The notes beneath the pieces are model-generated. The model was not told where the DNA came from. It saw only the letters and a list, made by a program, of their open reading frames with translations, and did not search any database. DNA of 64,000 nt from Candidatus Falkowbacteria bacterium (GTDB lineage Bacteria; Patescibacteriota; Patescibacteriia; Patescibacteriales; UBA12465), in NCBI GenBank assembly GCA_016432645.1, contig CP066698.1, positions 581,062 to 645,061 on the forward strand, given 5' to 3'. Within the stretch, counting starts at the first letter, position 1. The number at the start of each line of letters is the position of its first letter. Positions 37,484-49,856 of this stretch are shown here, one piece after another. Position numbers and translations under genes: made by a program.

Positions 37484-38854
37484 TTATTTATAATTATCCG
37501 GCCAATCATTCTGAAAAATAATGGTATCGCCTGCACGCAAAACATTAGCTAAATCTTGGTGTGCGGCAATAGCGTCGGGATATTCTTTAAAATTTAAAAA
37601 ACCAATTTTCCGAAATTCATCAGCAATGTAAGCGGTGGCGCTATTTTTTATTAATAGCACTAAATCAATTTTTTTTGAAGCATAGAGTCGGGCAATTTCC
37701 CGATGGCGTTCTTCTTTTTTATCACCCAGCTCTACCAAGCCCGGAGTAATGACCAGGCGTCTTCCGGTGGCACGACCCAAAACTTCCAAGCCGCTCTTAA
37801 AACCATCAAAATTACCATTATAACTATCATCAATTACTAATAGTTGAGAGGCTTTATTCCAAATCGGTTCCAAACGATTCTTAATAATTGGCATGGCGGC
37901 GATAGGCGCAATCGCTTTATTTAAATCCATTCCCAATTCTTGAGCCAAAGACAAAGACATCGCCAGTAAAATAATATTGTGCTTAGCTAATAATTTAGTG
38001 GAAAAAGTGATACCCGCATAGCAAAAAGATAGTCCGGAAAAATTCGGCAAAATGTTGAGCTCCTCAACCGAAGAATAGTCAATGCCGACAATGGACGGCA
38101 ATTTGAAACGAGAATAATTTCCTTTAACATTATCATCAACAAAATTTAAAACAACTTTTTTAGCGGTGCGTTCGGCTAATTCGAATTTGGCCTTAATAGT
38201 ATTCTGCAGGCCGCCAAAACGTTCTAGATGAGATTCATTAATGCCGGTTAAAAAAGAATAATCCGGATTTACCAAATCACAAATCTTAGCAATATCGCCG
38301 ATTTGATAAGCGCCCATTTCCACAATAAAAAAATCAGCAGCAGCTAAAGCGGCTTGATTAGTAATAATAAAGTAAGCAATTCCTAAATCGGTATTAATAT
38401 TATTCGGCGTCTTAACAATTTTAAAACCACTTTCTAAAACAACTGCTAAAATTTCTTTCAAGCTAGTCTTGCCGTAACTGCCGGTAATACCGATGACTTC
38501 AACGTGTTGAGCAGCTAAAATCTTTTTTGCCCGGCTAATTACCCTATTTTTTAAAAAATAATCCAGAGGTAAAAACAGCCAAAGGACCAAAACTGCCAAC
38601 AGCGGCAAAATAATTATTAGTAAAACCAAAAATACTAAAGTCCAGAGCTTAAACACGGAAACCGCCAAAGCAATTAAGCAAATAACAACCGCCAACAACA
38701 AATAATAAATAGCCCGCGCTTTCTGAGTCCAATCAATTACTTGGCGTTTTTCTAAAGACCACCAATGCCAATTAGAATAAACGAATGTTAAAAAACGTCG
38801 TACATCATACGACTCTCTTTGTAAAATATAAACTAAGCCGCGGATGATATTCAT
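37484..38854 (-). CDS. murF: MurF-like Mur ligase (UDP-MurNAc-tripeptide : D-Ala-D-Ala ligase) with a membrane-spanning N-terminus
   Basis: 456 aa. P-loop GITGSYGKTS at ~residue 122 and VIDDSYNGN (MurF DDSYNAN motif). It lies adjacent to ddl. Residues ~45-100 are two strongly hydrophobic helices. Confidence 0.75.
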   Translation of the reverse strand: MNIIRGLVYILQRESYDVRRFLTFVYSNWHWWSLEKRQVIDWTQKARAIYYLLLAVVICLIALAVSVFKLWTLVFLVLLIIILPLLAVLVLWLFLPLDYFLKNRVISRAKKILAAQHVEVIGITGSYGKTSLKEILAVVLESGFKIVKTPNNINTDLGIAYFIITNQAALAAADFFIVEMGAYQIGDIAKICDLVNPDYSFLTGINESHLERFGGLQNTIKAKFELAERTAKKVVLNFVDDNVKGNYSRFKLPSIVGIDYSSVEELNILPNFSGLSFCYAGITFSTKLLAKHNIILLAMSLSLAQELGMDLNKAIAPIAAMPIIKNRLEPIWNKASQLLVIDDSYNGNFDGFKSGLEVLGRATGRRLVITPGLVELGDKKEERHREIARLYASKKIDLVLLIKNSATAYIADEFRKIGFLNFKEYPDAIAAHQDLANVLRAGDTIIFQNDWPDNYK

Positions 38855-39591
38855 AGATACTTGGCAATAATTTTCTTAAACTCTTCCGGCTTATCTAAAA
38901 AAGCATAATGTCCGGCGTCAGGGATTGTTTCTAAAACCGCTTGGTAGCTTAAGCTTTTTAGTTTTTCGGCCTGCCGATAAGGCGTCGCCACATCATCTCG
39001 ACCCCAAATTAAAATAATTGGCAGTTGTAACTTGAAAAAGGCGATTTGCCGATCTTCACTAATCAATTTTTTATAGGTTCCAGCCATTTCCCCAGCTTCT
39101 AGATAATCGGCACTAAGTGCCTTGCCAGCCAAACGCCGCCGCCATTTCTGGTTAATAAAGGGAAACAAAATGCGAAAAATTTTAGCGCCGATAAATAACT
39201 TTTGTGAGCGCCCTAATCGCTCCCGAATAACTGCTCCGCCCAGGAGAATCAATTTTTGGGCCTCTCGGCCGGAACTCAAATATTCAACGGCCACTGCCCC
39301 GCCAACACTATGACCAATAATAATCGGGTTCACAATCTTTAATTTGTTTAAAAAATCGGCCACTAATTTTGAGTAATCGGCCAAACCCCAATCTTCTGGC
39401 GGTGCTTCGCTGCCGCCCCAACCAGGAAGGTTAATCGCTAACAAATTAGAAATCTTCCCCATAACCGAGCAAAACAAATCAACCGGCGATTTCCAGCCAG
39501 GTAAAAAAACAACCGCTTGATTGGGATTAAAATCGGAACTAATCAAATAGCTGATTTTTAGGCCATTAACAATGATTTCTTTTTTTATCAT
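38851..39591 (-). CDS. Alpha/beta hydrolase
   Basis: 246 aa. Nucleophile elbow GHSVGG, C-terminal IPDAGHYAF (catalytic His region). ATGA overlap with the murF start. Confidence 0.75.
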   Translation of the reverse strand: MIKKEIIVNGLKISYLISSDFNPNQAVVFLPGWKSPVDLFCSVMGKISNLLAINLPGWGGSEAPPEDWGLADYSKLVADFLNKLKIVNPIIIGHSVGGAVAVEYLSSGREAQKLILLGGAVIRERLGRSQKLFIGAKIFRILFPFINQKWRRRLAGKALSADYLEAGEMAGTYKKLISEDRQIAFFKLQLPIILIWGRDDVATPYRQAEKLKSLSYQAVLETIPDAGHYAFLDKPEEFKKIIAKYL

Positions 39592-39597
39592 ATAAAT

Positions 39598-39606
39598 ATT
39601 ATAGCA
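39598..39606 (-). promoter_or_regulatory. Extended -10 promoter (TGcTATAAT) placed 6 nt from the ATG of the hydrolase-murF-ddl operon; implies a leaderless mRNA
   Basis: Minus strand gaTGcTATAATatttatATG. The -10 is 39603-39598 and the start codon is 39591-39589. Confidence 0.45.
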
Positions 39607-39645
39607 TCCTAGCCCAAAAACAGGAAAAATTCCAGGGCCAAAATA

Positions 39646-39674
39646 TTGACGGCAAAAAGCGATTCCGCTAAAAT
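39646..39674 (+). promoter_or_regulatory. Promoter P1 of island unit U1
   Basis: TTGACG (39646-39651), 17 nt, TAAAAT (39669-39674). Confidence 0.5.
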
Positions 39675-39715
39675 AAGACCATAGTCCTTTTTATTAACAT
39701 CTAAAAATCAGCATC

Positions 39716-39847
39716 ATGAAAAAGAAAAATTTTGCATCATCGACAGCATTGACGACATCTGAAGTATTCGGCGACAACAAAACTGGTAAAAGCGAAATGG
39801 CAGGTTCTTCCGGACAGCAAAGAAGCGAAATGCAACAAAGGAAGTAA
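39716..39847 (+). CDS. Possible 43-aa hydrophilic peptide in unit U1 (this may instead be a non-coding RNA)
   Basis: ATG 39716 to TAA 39845-39847: MKKKNFASSTALTTSEVFGDNKTGKSEMAGSSGQQRSEMQQRK. No Shine-Dalgarno sequence; bounded by promoter P1 and terminator T1. Confidence 0.25.
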   Translation: MKKKNFASSTALTTSEVFGDNKTGKSEMAGSSGQQRSEMQQRK

Positions 39848-39872
39848 AAGATGCCGGGTTTTAAAAATGAAA

Positions 39873-39905
39873 AAGGTTGCCGCTGGTAGCCTTTTTTCTT
39901 TTTCT
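39873..39905 (+). terminator. Intrinsic terminator T1
   Basis: Stem GGTTGC (39875-39880) / GTAGCC (39886-39891) with two G-U pairs, flanked by an A-run and the tail TTTTTTCTTTTTCT. Confidence 0.5.
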
Positions 39906-39910
39906 CCTTA

Positions 39911-39939
39911 TTGACGGCTAAAAATAAAGTAACTACAAT
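39911..39939 (+). promoter_or_regulatory. Promoter P2 of island unit U2
   Basis: TTGACG (39911-39916), 17 nt, TACAAT (39934-39939). The ATTGACGGC context is the same as in P1. Confidence 0.55.
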
Positions 39940-39945
39940 ATAAAT

Positions 39946-40240
39946 ACATTTAAATTAAGCAGCGAAATGAATCTTCCTGGACCAATTTGGTCCTCTCAGA
40001 AAGAAGCGCATTGTTCTTTCTTAATTTGATAAGCCAAATTTTCCTAGCTTATCAAAACTACTTAACAGGCGAGGTGTTCAATTTTAAAAAATCATCAGTG
40101 ATGAGAAAATCATTCACAAGATTGTTTTAAGGCTGCTGAATTAATTTCGTTACGAGGATGATGACTACATAACCAAAAAATACTAAGCGTTATGTACGAA
40201 TCGGGAGGGGTTTCTTTTTAGGAACCCCTTTTTTCTTTTT
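39946..40240 (+). ncRNA. Candidate structured small RNA of about 295 nt (unit U2), class unknown
   Basis: Bounded by P2 and a strong terminator (GGGGTTTC 40207-40214 / GGAACCCC 40221-40228 plus T-run). No ORF longer than 20 codons. Five further hairpins: 39979-39993, 39998-40021 (8 bp), 40028-40053 (7 bp), 40092-40104, 40166-40196 (8 bp). Confidence 0.45.
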
Positions 40241-40276
40241 CTAAAGAGAGCAACGAGACCCTGTTGACAAAGACTA

Positions 40277-40304
40277 TTGACCTTTTTTATTCTTTTGCTA
40301 ATAT
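40277..40304 (+). promoter_or_regulatory. Promoter P3 of island unit U3
   Basis: TTGACC (40277-40282), 16 nt, TAATAT (40299-40304). Confidence 0.5.
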
Positions 40305-40329
40305 AACAGCATCACCAAAATTTCAGAAC

Positions 40330-40629
40330 ATGATAAAATTTGTTTTTCTTGTTTTGGTTCTGAGTTTTGGGCCGCACGTGTTGATTACCAACAATAATGG
40401 CAATCTAGAAATCCGCCAACGCCCCTGGGTGTTGATAGAACAAGGAGTTCAAAAAATTGCCTACCAACAATCTTACGGTCTTATTCCGAGGAGTGTTGAC
40501 ATATTGACTGTTAATCAGCAAGAAGAAAACGAGGCCCCAATTTTTGCCGGGGCAACCGACCCTGTCGATACTATCGACAACATCGCCTGGCAACGGCAAA
40601 AAGAAAAACTCGCAGGGCTTACCATTTAG
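40330..40629 (+). CDS. Small putative secreted protein, 99 aa
   Basis: The ATG at 40330 is in frame with track ORF 40264..40629. The TTG at 40264 is itself a TTGACA box upstream of P3, so I trimmed the ORF. MIKFVFLVLVLSFGPHVLI looks like a signal peptide. No homology known to me. Confidence 0.45.
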   Translation: MIKFVFLVLVLSFGPHVLITNNNGNLEIRQRPWVLIEQGVQKIAYQQSYGLIPRSVDILTVNQQEENEAPIFAGATDPVDTIDNIAWQRQKEKLAGLTI

Positions 40630-40801
40630 AGAACAATGGTTTGTCCCGTCGCAATGAAAGATGTTAAAACATCTAAATGTTCTCTGGCGTAACTATAACG
40701 CCGCAATCTATTCCATGTGCATCGTGGAACAACTCTCTTTTAAACGGATAATCTCCCGAAAACGACCCGACCGTGATCAGACGGTCTAGGGAGCTCTATC
40801 C
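40628..40801 (+). other. Hairpin-dense 3' region of unit U3 (candidate structured RNA element)
   Basis: Helices: AGAGAACA 40628-40635 / TGTTCTCT 40678-40685, enclosing GATGT/ACATC; GGCGT 40686-40690 / ACGCC 40698-40702; TTCCATG 40711-40717 / CGTGGAA 40723-40729; and a three-segment helix GGATA..CTCCC..GACCGT / ACGGTC..GGGAG..TATCC (40746-40801). Confidence 0.4.
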
Positions 40802-40829
40802 TGTACTAATTTTCTCAAAAAAAACAAAA

Positions 40830-40860
40830 AGCGCTTTCTTAACCGAAGGCGCTTTTCTCT
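40830..40860 (+). terminator. Intrinsic terminator T3
   Basis: AGCGCTTTC (40830-40838) / GAAGGCGCT (40845-40853), 9 bp with one G-U pair, then TTTTCTCTT. Confidence 0.6.
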
Positions 40861-40938
40861 TGGCAAAACCAATATTTTTAAATAAAAATCAAATTTAGTC
40901 AAATAGAAATTATTAGGACAATATGATAAAATTGAAGC

Positions 40939-43686
40939 ATGTCTAAACTAAAACCCAAGTTAATAATCATTGACGGCAACGCCATCATCCATCGCAGCTT
41001 CCATGCCCTGCCTCCAACTCTCCGAACCAAAGACGGAATTCTGGTTAACGCTGTGTATGGCTTTACCTCTTTTTTACTCAAAGCTTTAAACGAATTCCAT
41101 CCAGAATATGTAATTTTAACCTTGGATAAAGCGGGCAAAACTTTTAGGCACGAAGTTTATACGGAATACAAGGCGACGCGCGTTAAGGCGCCGGATGAAC
41201 TCTATGAACAAATTCCACTAGTTAAAAAAATAGCCGAAGCTTTTGATATTCCGATTTTTGAACTCTCCGGTTTTGAAGCGGATGACTTAATCGGGACTTT
41301 AAGCAAACAAGCAGGAGATGAAAAAAATCTAGAAACAATTATTATGACCGGCGATATGGACACCTTGCAGTTAATAGACGAAAAAACCAAAGTCTATACC
41401 ATGAGCCGCGGTTTATCGGACAGTGTTTTATACGACGTTGATAAAGTAAATGAGCGCTACGGCTTAAAACCGACACAAATTATAGATTACAAAGCTTTAC
41501 GCGGCGATCCCAGTGACAACATTCCGGGAGTACGTGGTATCGGCGAAAAAACCGCCGTGGAACTGCTACAAAATTTTAATGACTTAGCGGGAGTTTATAA
41601 GGCCGCCGAAAAAAATGATAAAAAAATCAAGGCGCGAACTTTAGAATTATTAGCCGCTTCCAAAGACAACGCTTTCTTAAGCCAAGAACTGGCAACGATA
41701 GACCGCGAAGCGCCAATTAAATTGCTGCTGGACAAAGCGCGCTTCGCCAATTTTAATTTAGAAAAAGTCTTAAAATTATTTAGCGACTTTGAGTTTCGTT
41801 CACTCTTAGGACGCGTCAAAGAAGTGCGCGACCGTTTAGAAAAAGCGCATCAAAGCGGCGAAGGCGGTGCCGAAATCGTGGAACAAAAAATTTCGGAGCG
41901 CCAAAAAAATGCGACCTACACTTTTTTAAAAACCGAAAAAGAATTTTCCGCTCTCATAGATAAACTGAGCAAAACTAAAGAATTTGCTCTAAAAATAGAA
42001 GCCACCGAAACCGACCCCTTAACAGCAGAAATTTTGGGCATCTCTTTTTGCTTAAAAGCCGGCGAAGCTTATTTTATTACCGGCGATAAAAAACAATTGG
42101 GCGCCTTGCAAGCTATTTTAGAAAATACCAACATCAAAAAAATCGGCCATAATCTAAAATTTGAATGGCGACTCCTTAATAAATTAGGTATTAATCTTCA
42201 AGGCGTTTATTTTGACGTCATGATTGCTTCCTATTTGTTAAATCCAGGTGAGAGGCGTCATGATTTAGACGCCCTGGCCTTTTCCGAACTCGGCATTGAA
42301 AAAATTAGTGCTAAGAACATTCAAGCTGCGGAACCGACGCAGATGAGCCTGGATTTCAGCGGTCCTGATCCAGAAAAATTAAGTTTATTTGCCTGCGAAA
42401 ACGTAGACTTAATTATTAAACTCAAAAAAATCTTAGCCAGCAAACTTAAACAAGAAGAGTTGGATGAAGTTTTCTCTAAAATTGAAATGCCGCTGACGGT
42501 AATTTTAGGCGAGATGGAAAACAATGGCATTAAAATCGATACTAAGCCGCTAAATAAACTCACTAAGGAAGTGGCAACTAAATTAAAAGGCCTGGAAACC
42601 GAAATTCATAAACTGGCCGGTTCAGAATTTAATATTAATTCTACCAAACAACTAAAAGAAGTTTTATTTGAAAAATTGGAAATACCGACCGAAGGCCTTA
42701 AAAAAACGAAGACTGGTTTCTCGACTGCTGAAGACGAATTAATAAAACTGAAAGATTTGCACCCGATAATCGCCTTGCTGCAAGATTATCGGGAACTAAA
42801 TAAATTAGAAACAACCTATTTAAACGCTTTGCCAAAAATGATAAATCCGGAAACTGGCAAAATCCACACGAACTTTAACCAAACGGTAGCGGCGACCGGA
42901 CGCTTATCATCCAATGACCCTAACCTACAAAACATCCCGACTCGAACTGAAGAAGGGCGGCGCATCCGTGAAGCTTTTGTCGCAACAACAGGCTATAAAT
43001 TAATAAGCTTTGATTATTCCCAAATTGAATTGCGTCTAGCGGCCCATATGTCCAAAGATGCTAAAATGATTGCCGCTTTTAAAGACGGCGCCGATATTCA
43101 CGCGGCGACCGCCGCTGGCATTAATGGCGTCAAAATTGAAGAGGTGACCAAAAAAATGCGTCAAGAAGCCAAGGCGGTTAATTTTGGAATCTTATATGGC
43201 CAGGGTCCGCACGGCTTAAGCCAAGGCGCCGGCATTCCCTACTACGAGGCTAACCAATTTATCAAAAAATATTTTGAAACTTATCCGGGAATCAAAAAAA
43301 TGATTGACGGTTTTATCAAACAGGCGCGCACTCAAAGCTATGCCATCACCATGTTCGGGCGCAAACGCCCTTTGCCTGATATGGAGTCTAATATTCCGAT
43401 GATTAGGAAGTCGGCCGAAAGAATGGCCATTAATACGCCGGTTCAAGGCTCAGCCGCTGATTTGATAAAGATGGCGATGATTAACATTGCCGAAACTATC
43501 GACGACGGCACCGACAACGCCAGAATGCTTTTGCAAGTCCATGACGAATTGATTTTTGAAATTAAAGAAGATAAGATAAATGGCTATACTGAAAAGATAA
43601 AGAGGTTAATGGAAAATGTTGCCAAGTTAAAGGTGTCGATTATCGCCGATGAACATCGGGGCGATAATTGGGGCGAACTGAAATAA
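40939..43686 (+). CDS. polA: DNA polymerase I
   Basis: 915 aa. The 5'-3' exonuclease N-terminus (LIIIDGNAIIHRSFHAL), a 3'-5' exo-like middle, and pol motifs DYSQIELR and LLQVHDELIFE. Confidence 0.95.
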   Translation: MSKLKPKLIIIDGNAIIHRSFHALPPTLRTKDGILVNAVYGFTSFLLKALNEFHPEYVILTLDKAGKTFRHEVYTEYKATRVKAPDELYEQIPLVKKIAEAFDIPIFELSGFEADDLIGTLSKQAGDEKNLETIIMTGDMDTLQLIDEKTKVYTMSRGLSDSVLYDVDKVNERYGLKPTQIIDYKALRGDPSDNIPGVRGIGEKTAVELLQNFNDLAGVYKAAEKNDKKIKARTLELLAASKDNAFLSQELATIDREAPIKLLLDKARFANFNLEKVLKLFSDFEFRSLLGRVKEVRDRLEKAHQSGEGGAEIVEQKISERQKNATYTFLKTEKEFSALIDKLSKTKEFALKIEATETDPLTAEILGISFCLKAGEAYFITGDKKQLGALQAILENTNIKKIGHNLKFEWRLLNKLGINLQGVYFDVMIASYLLNPGERRHDLDALAFSELGIEKISAKNIQAAEPTQMSLDFSGPDPEKLSLFACENVDLIIKLKKILASKLKQEELDEVFSKIEMPLTVILGEMENNGIKIDTKPLNKLTKEVATKLKGLETEIHKLAGSEFNINSTKQLKEVLFEKLEIPTEGLKKTKTGFSTAEDELIKLKDLHPIIALLQDYRELNKLETTYLNALPKMINPETGKIHTNFNQTVAATGRLSSNDPNLQNIPTRTEEGRRIREAFVATTGYKLISFDYSQIELRLAAHMSKDAKMIAAFKDGADIHAATAAGINGVKIEEVTKKMRQEAKAVNFGILYGQGPHGLSQGAGIPYYEANQFIKKYFETYPGIKKMIDGFIKQARTQSYAITMFGRKRPLPDMESNIPMIRKSAERMAINTPVQGSAADLIKMAMINIAETIDDGTDNARMLLQVHDELIFEIKEDKINGYTEKIKRLMENVAKLKVSIIADEHRGDNWGELK

Positions 43687-48779: not shown

Positions 48780-49104
48780 GCCTCGGTAGCTCAGTGGTAG
48801 AGCAAAGGACTGGTTTTCGGTCCGCCTAATAGTAATATTGGGATGAAAATCGGGTGAATTCGGGGAAACCTTCCCTTTTATCTAAGTTGGGTAAAAGAAA
48901 GGCAATCCCGAGCCAAGCTTCAATCGGGTTTAAGATTGAAGAAGGCGTAGAGACTAGCAGGTGAGCCCAACAATAATCCTGCATTAGCGCCCGACTCCGT
49001 ACTTAATCTTTTAAGCGGAGATGATATAGTCCGATCCTTAAGGAAACTTAAGAAAAATTTCAAGGAAAATCCTTGTGTCGTCAGTCCGATTCTGACCCGG
49101 GGCA
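48780..49104 (+). tRNA. tRNA-Phe (anticodon GAA) interrupted by a group I intron; exons 48780-48811 and 49065-49104
   Basis: The joined exons give GCCTCGG-TA-GCTCAGTGGTAGAGC-A-AAGGA-CTGAAAA-TCCTT-GTGTC-GTCAG-TCCGATT-CTGAC-CCGGGGC-A. This is a complete cloverleaf with a 7-bp acceptor stem (one G-U pair). Confidence 0.9.
48812..49064 (+). ncRNA. Group I self-splicing intron (253 nt, no ORF) inserted between U33 and G34 of tRNA-Phe
   Basis: P1: exon GGACU (48807-48811) with GGUCC (48819-48823), giving a U-G pair at the splice site. P10: UUUUC (48814-48818) with 3' exon GAAAA (49065-49069). P2 48825-48842 has a GUAA loop. P3 48851-48856/48988-48993. P4 48860-48864/48907-48911. P5 48869-48872/48899-48902. 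P6a 48918-48925/48934-48941. P7 48950,48952-48955/49028-49032 with a bulged A. P8 48995-48999/49016-49020. P9 49037-49052 has a GAAA loop. The terminal G is at 49064. Confidence 0.85.
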
Positions 49105-49172: not shown

Positions 49173-49856
49173 ATGCGTTTAGACAAAGATCAAGCTTTAA
49201 AATTAAGACTCTCAGGAAAATCTTATAACCAGATAAGCAATCTTTTAAAAATTCCCAAAAGTACTTTAAGCGTTTGGTTAAAAGATGTTCCCCTATCGGA
49301 GAAGGCTAAATCTGTAATAAAATCAAGAACCAACGAACTTGCGGTATCAAAGTTAATTGAAAGAAATAAAAATCAAACCGTATTAGCAAGCCAACGACAC
49401 GAAGTAATTTATAAACAAGCGACAAAGGAGGCAAAAAATTTATTGGATAATCCCTTATTTATCACAGGAGTATCGCTTTATTGGGCCGAGGGCTATAAAA
49501 AGGGCTGGACAGACAGTAAGTGGAAAAGTATTGATTTCGCCAATGCTGACTCCGAGATGATTGCAATCATGATGTTATTTTTCAAAAAATTTCTCAACAT
49601 CAAGGAATACAAGATAAAAATTCAGATAATGCTGCACGATGAACAAAACTCCCAGAAAGCACTAGATTACTGGCGAAACATTACCAAAGTACCAAAAGAA
49701 AATTTTTTTAAACCTTGCTGCGTAATTAGTAAAGCGAGTAATGGTAAAATAAAAAATAAATTGGAATACGGGACAGTCCATATTAGAATAAACGACGTAC
49801 AAGCATTTTTCCGTTTAGCCGGTTGGATAGATTCATTAAAAGCAAAATTTATATAA
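49173..49856 (+). CDS. Free-standing homing-endonuclease-like protein: N-terminal helix-turn-helix plus a single LAGLIDADG-like motif
   Basis: 227 aa. HTH SYNQISNLLKIPKSTLSVWLK. The LAGLIDADG-like helix is LFITGVSLYWAEGYK, followed by IDFANADSEMIAIMMLFFKKFL ... KIQIMLH ... ALDYWRNITKVP ... YGTVHIRINDVQAFFRLAGWI, a pattern I associate with LAGLIDADG_3-type enzymes. It is visibly more AT-rich than its neighbours. Confidence 0.55.
   Translation: MRLDKDQALKLRLSGKSYNQISNLLKIPKSTLSVWLKDVPLSEKAKSVIKSRTNELAVSKLIERNKNQTVLASQRHEVIYKQATKEAKNLLDNPLFITGVSLYWAEGYKKGWTDSKWKSIDFANADSEMIAIMMLFFKKFLNIKEYKIKIQIMLHDEQNSQKALDYWRNITKVPKENFFKPCCVISKASNGKIKNKLEYGTVHIRINDVQAFFRLAGWIDSLKAKFI

Follow-up and report, generated by a model that had tools for sequence, protein, structure and literature searches.

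The gap between an alpha/beta hydrolase gene (Hyd) and polA in a Candidatus Falkowbacteria genome (Patescibacteria, candidate phyla radiation, CPR) probably holds three unrelated, autonomous and co-oriented mini-genes: one for a 43-aa protein (unit U1), one for a structured non-coding RNA (ncRNA) of about 300 nt (U2), and one for an orphan protein of 99 aa (U3). We analyzed this gap within a 64-kb stretch of DNA, referred to here as the window, and all coordinates are positions in it (Table 1). To the left of the gap, Ddl, a Mur ligase, and Hyd lie on the minus strand; polA and murD follow to the right on the plus strand. When the N-terminus of PolA was used to scan species-representative genomes, 80 loci were obtained (related loci are cited by their L numbers), and the order Ddl-MurF-Hyd / gap / PolA-MurD is retained in many of them. 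The coding density of the 1,347-nt island is approximately 32%. Its GC content is the same as that of the flanks, so that composition gave no sign of a foreign origin. We propose that a variable slot exists between Hyd and polA in a Candidatus Falkowbacteria clade, and that it is occupied here by what would be three single-gene transcription units, each oriented as polA.

The preliminary description of this DNA, which was made from the sequence alone, had divided the island into three tandem units that run from promoter to terminator. A consensus scan confirmed promoter-like sites at the three positions proposed. The three hairpin and T-run terminators were also found where they had been placed, T1 and T2 by the terminator scan (39869-39897 and 40203-40232) and T3, which is absent from the scan listing, by an inverted-repeat search and folding. 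In the 2.5-kb region 39000-41500, there are 13 promoter-like sites compared to 5.1 ± 2.2 in shuffled sequences, and eight terminator-like sites of a hairpin plus T-run compared to 3.0 ± 2.0. The three best plus-strand promoter matches in this region belong to P1, P2, and an alternative U3 site that overlaps P3. The division into three co-oriented units is thus supported, as each of them has a promoter-like site and an intrinsic terminator of its own, and these signals are the most conserved parts of the units in relatives. The -35 element of P1 (TTGACGGC) is conserved, and its -10 element reads TATAAT in L001 and L002. The TTGAC and the -10 core of P2 are invariant in all eight U2 homologues, which also keep the T-run of T2. 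The P3 region is conserved at the DNA level even in loci without U2 (L004, L005, L009, L010), and T3 is conserved with compensatory changes. We infer transcription itself, the transcript ends, and all functions of U1 to U3.

Two features near the right border of the island should be mentioned here. The hairpin of T3 (40826-40862) is preceded by an A-run and followed by a T-run, and the minus strand reads as a strong terminator, with a hairpin followed by TTTTTGTTTTTTTT. Because of this arrangement, T3 may act as a bidirectional terminator. The polA promoter ends 6 nt upstream of the polA ATG, and the polA start appears to be of the leaderless type.

U1 would be the micro-protein gene. Its 43-aa open reading frame (ORF), p43, is retained in seven genomes at lengths of 40-48 aa (relatives in L001, L002, L089, L091, L092, and L094). 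All indels within the ORF are 3 or 6 nt long, that is, multiples of three, while those after the stop codon are not. The start (MKKKN) and the end (MQQRK-stop) of the protein are conserved. The RNA of U1 folds no better than shuffled sequences (z = -0.03). We therefore read U1 as a protein-coding small gene: its ORF is retained with in-frame indels and conserved termini, and its RNA lacks a structure signal. U1 would give a short mRNA for a hydrophilic, probably disordered peptide. p43 matched no Pfam domain and no PADLOC defence protein, and a word-indexed search of 5.8 billion proteins returned one homologue. The expectation of micro-protein genes was thus borne out for U1, and the 43-aa and 99-aa ORFs are present, as had been described.

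A Shine-Dalgarno site was found for one of the 41 long ORFs in the window. Since the genome hardly uses such sites, their absence before p43 and p99 is no argument against translation. In 16 of the same 41 ORFs, a -10-like TAnnnT hexamer is located 5-9 nt before the ATG, e.g., at 39591 (Hyd), 40939 (polA), 10194, and 55861, which suggests widespread leaderless mRNAs in this genome.

The nonamer AGCGAAATG does occur at 39791, 39824, and 39961, as had been pointed out; the window contains four copies versus 1.18 expected, and four of 100 shuffles reach this number. Two of the copies encode an internal (K/R)SEM repeat of p43. The third, located in U2, is probably a coincidence, because it is not conserved in L001 or L002.

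Among the three units, U2 is the one good candidate for an RNA gene. Its folding energy of -75.9 kcal/mol compares to -57.2 ± 4.6 kcal/mol in shuffled sequences (z = -4.08). Profile and covariance-model searches identified U2 in eight loci besides the window (L001, L002, L003, L006, L089, L091, L093, and L094; L089 and L090 are one contig region, and the copy in L094 is truncated at the contig end), and nowhere else in 0.97 Mb of related loci. The homologues are 267-400 nt long. All eight keep both the -35/-10 elements and the terminator, and the 3' third is variable, with two quite different versions. No reading frame is common to five of these homologues, in which the open frames cover different columns of the alignment; the frame that the window has in common with L002 is interrupted by a TAA in L006, and conserved blocks fall into different frames owing to indels of 1 and 2 nt. 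In the conserved hairpins H1 to H3, 96.4% of the cells in eight related sequences can pair, compared to 40-62% when the partners are slid. Some substitutions affect both sides of a pair, namely G-C to A-U in H1 of three sequences, and G-C to A-U and A-U to C-G in H3. This covariation is suggestive, but it is not proof. The fold, the compensatory changes in the hairpins, and the absence of a shared frame make U2 look like an RNA gene, in line with the earlier proposal of small RNA (sRNA) or micro-protein genes.

According to this reading, U2 would produce a free-standing ncRNA of approximately 295 nt with a conserved three-hairpin 5' domain, a single-stranded AAAUCAUUCACA, a variable 3' third, and an intrinsic terminator, and it might act as a trans-acting regulator or a protein-binding RNA. 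A check against Rfam 15 at the gathering threshold, covering the window and ten related loci, gave no match in the island and hence no family for any of its units; in E-value mode, only terminator look-alikes below the threshold appeared (sroD with 21 bits, ctRNA_p42d with 20-32 bits, SpF01 with 28 bits). No distant copies emerged when a covariance model built on the 5' domain was applied to 92 sources (0.97 Mb). Searched metagenome-wide, a degenerate 21-nt pattern of U2 hit just contigs that carry the U2 loci already known from L002 and L003, along with unrelated matches. The conserved block of U2 was also compared with 55 start regions from the window, by scanning for complements and by folding duplexes, and nothing rose above background.

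U2 shares several properties with intergenic genes for trans-acting bacterial sRNAs: a consensus-like promoter of its own, a U-tailed intrinsic terminator, conserved hairpins next to an unpaired stretch, no conserved ORF, and a distribution restricted to one clade. It differs from them in being longer than most (270-400 nt), in always lying beside p99, and in matching no Rfam family. Like 6S RNA, U2 would be a stand-alone gene for a structured, abundant-looking RNA, a few hundred nucleotides long and surrounded by housekeeping genes. However, both the minimum free energy and the consensus folds consist of several short hairpins, where 6S RNA forms a single long, irregular hairpin with a large bubble at its centre; the 6S models of Rfam did not match, the range of U2 is too narrow, and its length is 267-400 nt rather than about 180 nt. 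TIGR guide-RNA arrays were also considered for U2 and rejected, as it has no tandem repeats and no Tas gene nearby.

As the main alternative, U2 could act in cis as a leader of p99, either riboswitch-like or a protein-binding attenuator, in which case transcription from P2 would stop at T2 or read into p99 depending on a signal sensed at the 5' domain. Such a leader would fit the constant position of U2: among the nine instances, every copy with downstream sequence available sits directly upstream of p99 on the same strand, which speaks against U2 as a gene in its own right. The distance from the end of T2 to the p99 ATG is 88 nt, and a conserved 5' domain followed by a variable 3' part and a terminator resembles an aptamer with its expression platform. 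U2 therefore has the layout of riboswitches and attenuating leaders, including the same-strand gene downstream. It departs from them in that P3, a separate promoter-like site conserved in genomes without U2, lies between T2 and the ORF, and in that p99 occurs without U2 in L092, L004, L005, and L008-L011. Moreover, a crude test with truncated folds revealed no conserved upstream partner for the 5' arm of T2 that could serve as antiterminator, and neither a known aptamer nor any riboswitch or leader family of Rfam was matched. The leader explanation is weakened by these results, and we consider it rather unlikely.

Coding by U2 was the second alternative, either for one or more micro-proteins or as the remnant of a decayed protein gene. 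Several U2 homologues do contain open frames of 38-63 codons, and the window, L001, and L002 have one common frame in which the stretch FLNLISQIFLAYQNY can be read. Nevertheless, a TAA breaks this frame in L006, the open frames lie at different columns in each species, and indels of 1 or 2 nt place conserved blocks such as AATCATTCACA in different frames. In L001, the 20-aa ORF has TTG in place of its ATG, L002 lacks this start codon, and the 47-aa ORF (p47) has no Pfam or PADLOC match. The changes in the hairpins are compensatory at the RNA level, and tblastx detected no protein-level match in more distant loci. No intact larger protein gene corresponding to U1, U2, or the tail of U3 was found when relatives were compared by tblastx, so the idea of a decayed remnant gained nothing. 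On this evidence, a coding U2 is improbable, and a structured ncRNA remains the reading that we prefer.

U3 contains p99. This ORF had been regarded as poorly supported, but it is annotated, being identical to the NCBI entry hypothetical protein HY931_02905 [Candidatus Falkowbacteria bacterium], and its homologues are found upstream of polA in more than 12 genomes (among them L001-L006, L008-L011, L089, and L091); the short contigs L092 and L093 carry homologous ORFs as well. The protein has an N-terminal hydrophobic helix and shares the motifs FLVLILSFGP, APIFAGA, and RQKxK with its homologues. U3 would hence be transcribed into the mRNA of a fast-evolving protein of about 100 aa with a membrane-anchor or signal-like N-terminus. 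The family is tiny: a word-indexed search found five proteins, and a profile search found eight cluster representatives among 1.84 billion. No Pfam or PADLOC match was obtained. Like other orphan, lineage-specific proteins and products of small ORFs, p43 and p99 are short, domainless, taxonomically restricted, fast-evolving, and poorly structured; p99 is notable just for its fixed site upstream of polA across Falkowbacteria.

The C-terminus of p99 is evolutionarily unstable. In the window, the ORF stops at a TAG (40627-40629) where L002 has TGG. The following 20 codons are open and homologous to RRIMACPVVSEDKYPRNSLA, the C-terminal extension present in L001, L002, L089, and L093, while the homologues of L091, L092, and L003 terminate at other positions. 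Because the codons after the TAG stay open and are homologous in relatives, the TAG appears to reflect a recent truncation or a variable C-terminus.

Downstream of p99, U3 continues into a structured 3' tail. The 233 nt from the p99 stop codon through T3 fold with a z of -4.26. In the consensus helices (Hb, the base stem of Hd, and the terminator), 96.4% of positions are paired in seven sequences, compared to 43-59% with slid partners. Both sides have changed in eight of the 22 pairs; shuffles give 3.2 ± 1.2. The base stem of Hd alone contributes four of its six pairs (GGATAA/TATCC, GGATGA/CATCC, AGAGTAA/TACTCT). The p99 genes of more distant relatives likewise have a hairpin-rich tail downstream (200-250 nt), together with a GUAC-type motif and a terminator. 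The tail and terminator might stabilize or process the transcript and insulate the downstream leaderless polA promoter. sRNAs derived from 3' untranslated regions (UTRs) occur in enterobacteria, for example CpxQ and SdhX. The U3 tail resembles structured 3' UTRs and such sRNAs in having conserved, covarying hairpins between the stop codon and an intrinsic terminator, and differs from them in that part of it is coding in relatives.

The preliminary description had also taken U1 and U2 for diverged duplicates and the three units for a small family of sRNA or micro-protein genes. An RNA-like U2 and a micro-protein in U1 stand, but the family does not: U1 is read as coding, U2 as non-coding, and U3 as the gene of a conserved protein. 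The shared 16-mer could be confirmed. This sequence, CCTTTTTTCTTTTTCT, is present in exactly two copies in 64 kb, at 39890 and 40227, with 0.04 expected. Together with a 15-nt block in the -35 context of P1 and P2 (TATTGACGGCnAAAA), it is all that U1 and U2 have in common (z = 7.0 for the terminator tail and z = 5.8 for the -35 block). As a side observation, the 11-mer ATTGACGGCAA from the same -35 context is also found inside polA (40969-40979), where it encodes IDGN; such a match alone can therefore be due to chance here.

If U1 and U2 were tandem duplicates of one ancestral unit, with one copy changed beyond recognition, these two identities, both far beyond chance, and the adjacent, co-oriented position of the units would be explained. 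However, the bodies are dissimilar (local alignment z = 1.6, a value equalled by 46 of 500 shuffles), and a U2 profile matches U1 at the terminator alone (E = 0.24). L003 and L006 split off before U1 arose, and yet their U2 orthologues are easily recognized with E = 1e-16 or better, so that a U1 duplicate made later should be at least as recognizable. In addition, only one of the two units is coding, and the shared pieces are functional signals that could be retained or could converge. A common origin by duplication thus seems improbable, and we favor units of unrelated content.

In relatives, the units are present or absent independently, which supports their autonomy. U1 is missing from L003 and L006, which have U2 and U3, and U2 is missing from L092, which has U1 and U3. 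Many loci contain just U3, and in L027, where all three are missing, Hyd and polA are separated by 98 nt. Once 39906-40242 (U2) is deleted, the window aligns without a break to L092, and once 39659-39923 (U1) is deleted, to L003. These missing pieces are flanked precisely by the two short direct repeats that U1 and U2 share, so that the units appear to have been gained or lost as whole cassettes. As both of the more distant genomes with U2, L003 and L006, lack U1, this unit was probably added later, and L092 has probably lost U2; we infer the direction in both cases. The slot has other content in L012, L013, and L017. In L002 (3557-5866, minus strand), L006, and L011, it contains a superfamily 1 helicase of 770-782 aa (domains AAA_11 and AAA_12) with a match to the PADLOC entry Mokosh MkoA in its C-terminal half, as well as a 73-75-aa ORF with a promoter nearly identical to P3. 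These cases hint that the slot can take defence-type cargo.

Several points weigh against three autonomous genes. The promoter and terminator calls are consensus matches alone. Protein-level constraint is weak for p43 (ratio of non-synonymous to synonymous substitution rates, dN/dS, of 0.33-0.95) and also for the fast-evolving p99 (0.44-1.05). The AlphaFold model of p99, with a predicted N-terminal and a short C-terminal helix, has a predicted local distance difference test (pLDDT) value of 44; a fold search with this model was dropped, since the value was too low. In U2, just three pairs change on both sides among eight related sequences, a count that six of 500 shuffles reach. The covariation in general was drawn from seven to eight closely related sequences, and relatedness inflates the shuffle control. 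Finally, target scans within the 64 kb and the other searches turned up no target, partner, or function for any unit. On the other side, the sequence signals, the coding or non-coding status of the units, the conservation of structure, and the modular presence and absence are observed. That all of this is merely chance or relic features in the non-functional spacer of an AT-rich genome, where promoter-like hexamers arise readily and the signals are known from sequence alone, is highly improbable, given that promoters, terminators, ORFs, and hairpins are kept across genomes whose flanking proteins are just 70-87% identical, with ORF indels in frame and hairpin substitutions compensatory.

Going further, U2 could represent a new structured ncRNA class of the Falkowbacteria clade, the tail of p99 a second new RNA motif, and the units could be swapped by recombination between their own expression signals. 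We put forward this combined proposal tentatively, as it may well not hold in all its parts.

Table 1. Features of the Hyd-polA gap and its borders in the window.
Feature	Position	Strand	Description or basis
Hyd, alpha/beta hydrolase	38851-39591	-	left border of gap
P1, promoter-like site of U1	39646-39674	+	TTGACG-17-TAAAAT, 10/12
p43, small hydrophilic 43-aa protein	39716-39847	+	MKKKN...SEMQQRK; ORF conservation
T1, predicted intrinsic terminator of U1	39869-39905	+	13-pair hairpin and CCTTTTTTCTTTTTCT tail; conserved in relatives
P2, promoter-like site of U2	39911-39939	+	TTGACG-17-TACAAT, 10/12
U2, candidate structured ncRNA, ~295 nt	39946-40242	+	fold, covariation, no shared frame
20-aa ATG ORF in U2	39967-40029	+	read directly from sequence
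U2 hairpin H1	39979-39993	+	conserved
47-aa TTG ORF (p47) in U2	39987-40130	+	open frame
U2 hairpin H2	39998-40021	+	conserved
U2 hairpin H3	40025-40056	+	conserved
U2 conserved block AAATCATTCACA	40107-40118	+	unpaired in consensus fold
T2, predicted intrinsic terminator of U2	40203-40242	+	13 pairs and T-run
Alternative U3 promoter-like site	40264-40293	+	10/12; overlaps P3
P3, promoter-like site of U3	40277-40304	+	TTGACC-16-TAATAT with TG
p99, orphan 99-aa protein	40330-40629	+	hypothetical protein HY931_02905
Putative former p99 C-terminal extension	40630-40695	+	open in frame after TAG; overlaps hairpin Ha
Structured 3' tail of U3	40659-40801	+	hairpin-rich, ~170 nt, then terminator T3
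Tail hairpin Ha	40659-40674	+	fold
Tail hairpin Hb	40685-40703	+	fold
Tail hairpin Hc	40711-40729	+	fold
Tail long hairpin Hd	40746-40801	+	followed by conserved TGTAC
T3, predicted terminator hairpin of U3	40827-40862	+	inverted repeat 40827-40838 with 40845-40856; 12-bp hairpin in fold
polA promoter (predicted)	40904-40939	+	TGATAAAAT; right border of island
polA	40939-43686	+	right of gap

Elsewhere in the window, the gene for tRNA-Phe(GAA) (48780-49100) carries a group I intron in the anticodon loop (Rfam RF00028, 83 bits, 48803-49053). The tRNA-Phe of L001 is uninterrupted, and L012 also carries the intron. A 227-aa ORF located just downstream of this gene (49173-49856) gave weak helix-turn-helix matches alone.

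Little is apparently known about regulatory RNAs and micro-proteins in CPR bacteria, and a literature search found nothing directly relevant. The present finding is lineage-specific and modest, and it leaves current understanding unchanged. It adds to a CPR lineage one unclassified RNA candidate, one putative structured 3' element, and two predicted orphan small proteins. U2 is conserved, independently signalled, approximately 300 nt long, and assigned to no known family, and metatranscriptomes can be screened for it as a concrete candidate. How tiny genes turn over in a streamlined genome can be seen from the units that are cleanly present or missing between short direct repeats. If units are indeed swapped via their own expression signals, this would offer reduced CPR genomes a simple route to gain and lose tiny genes.

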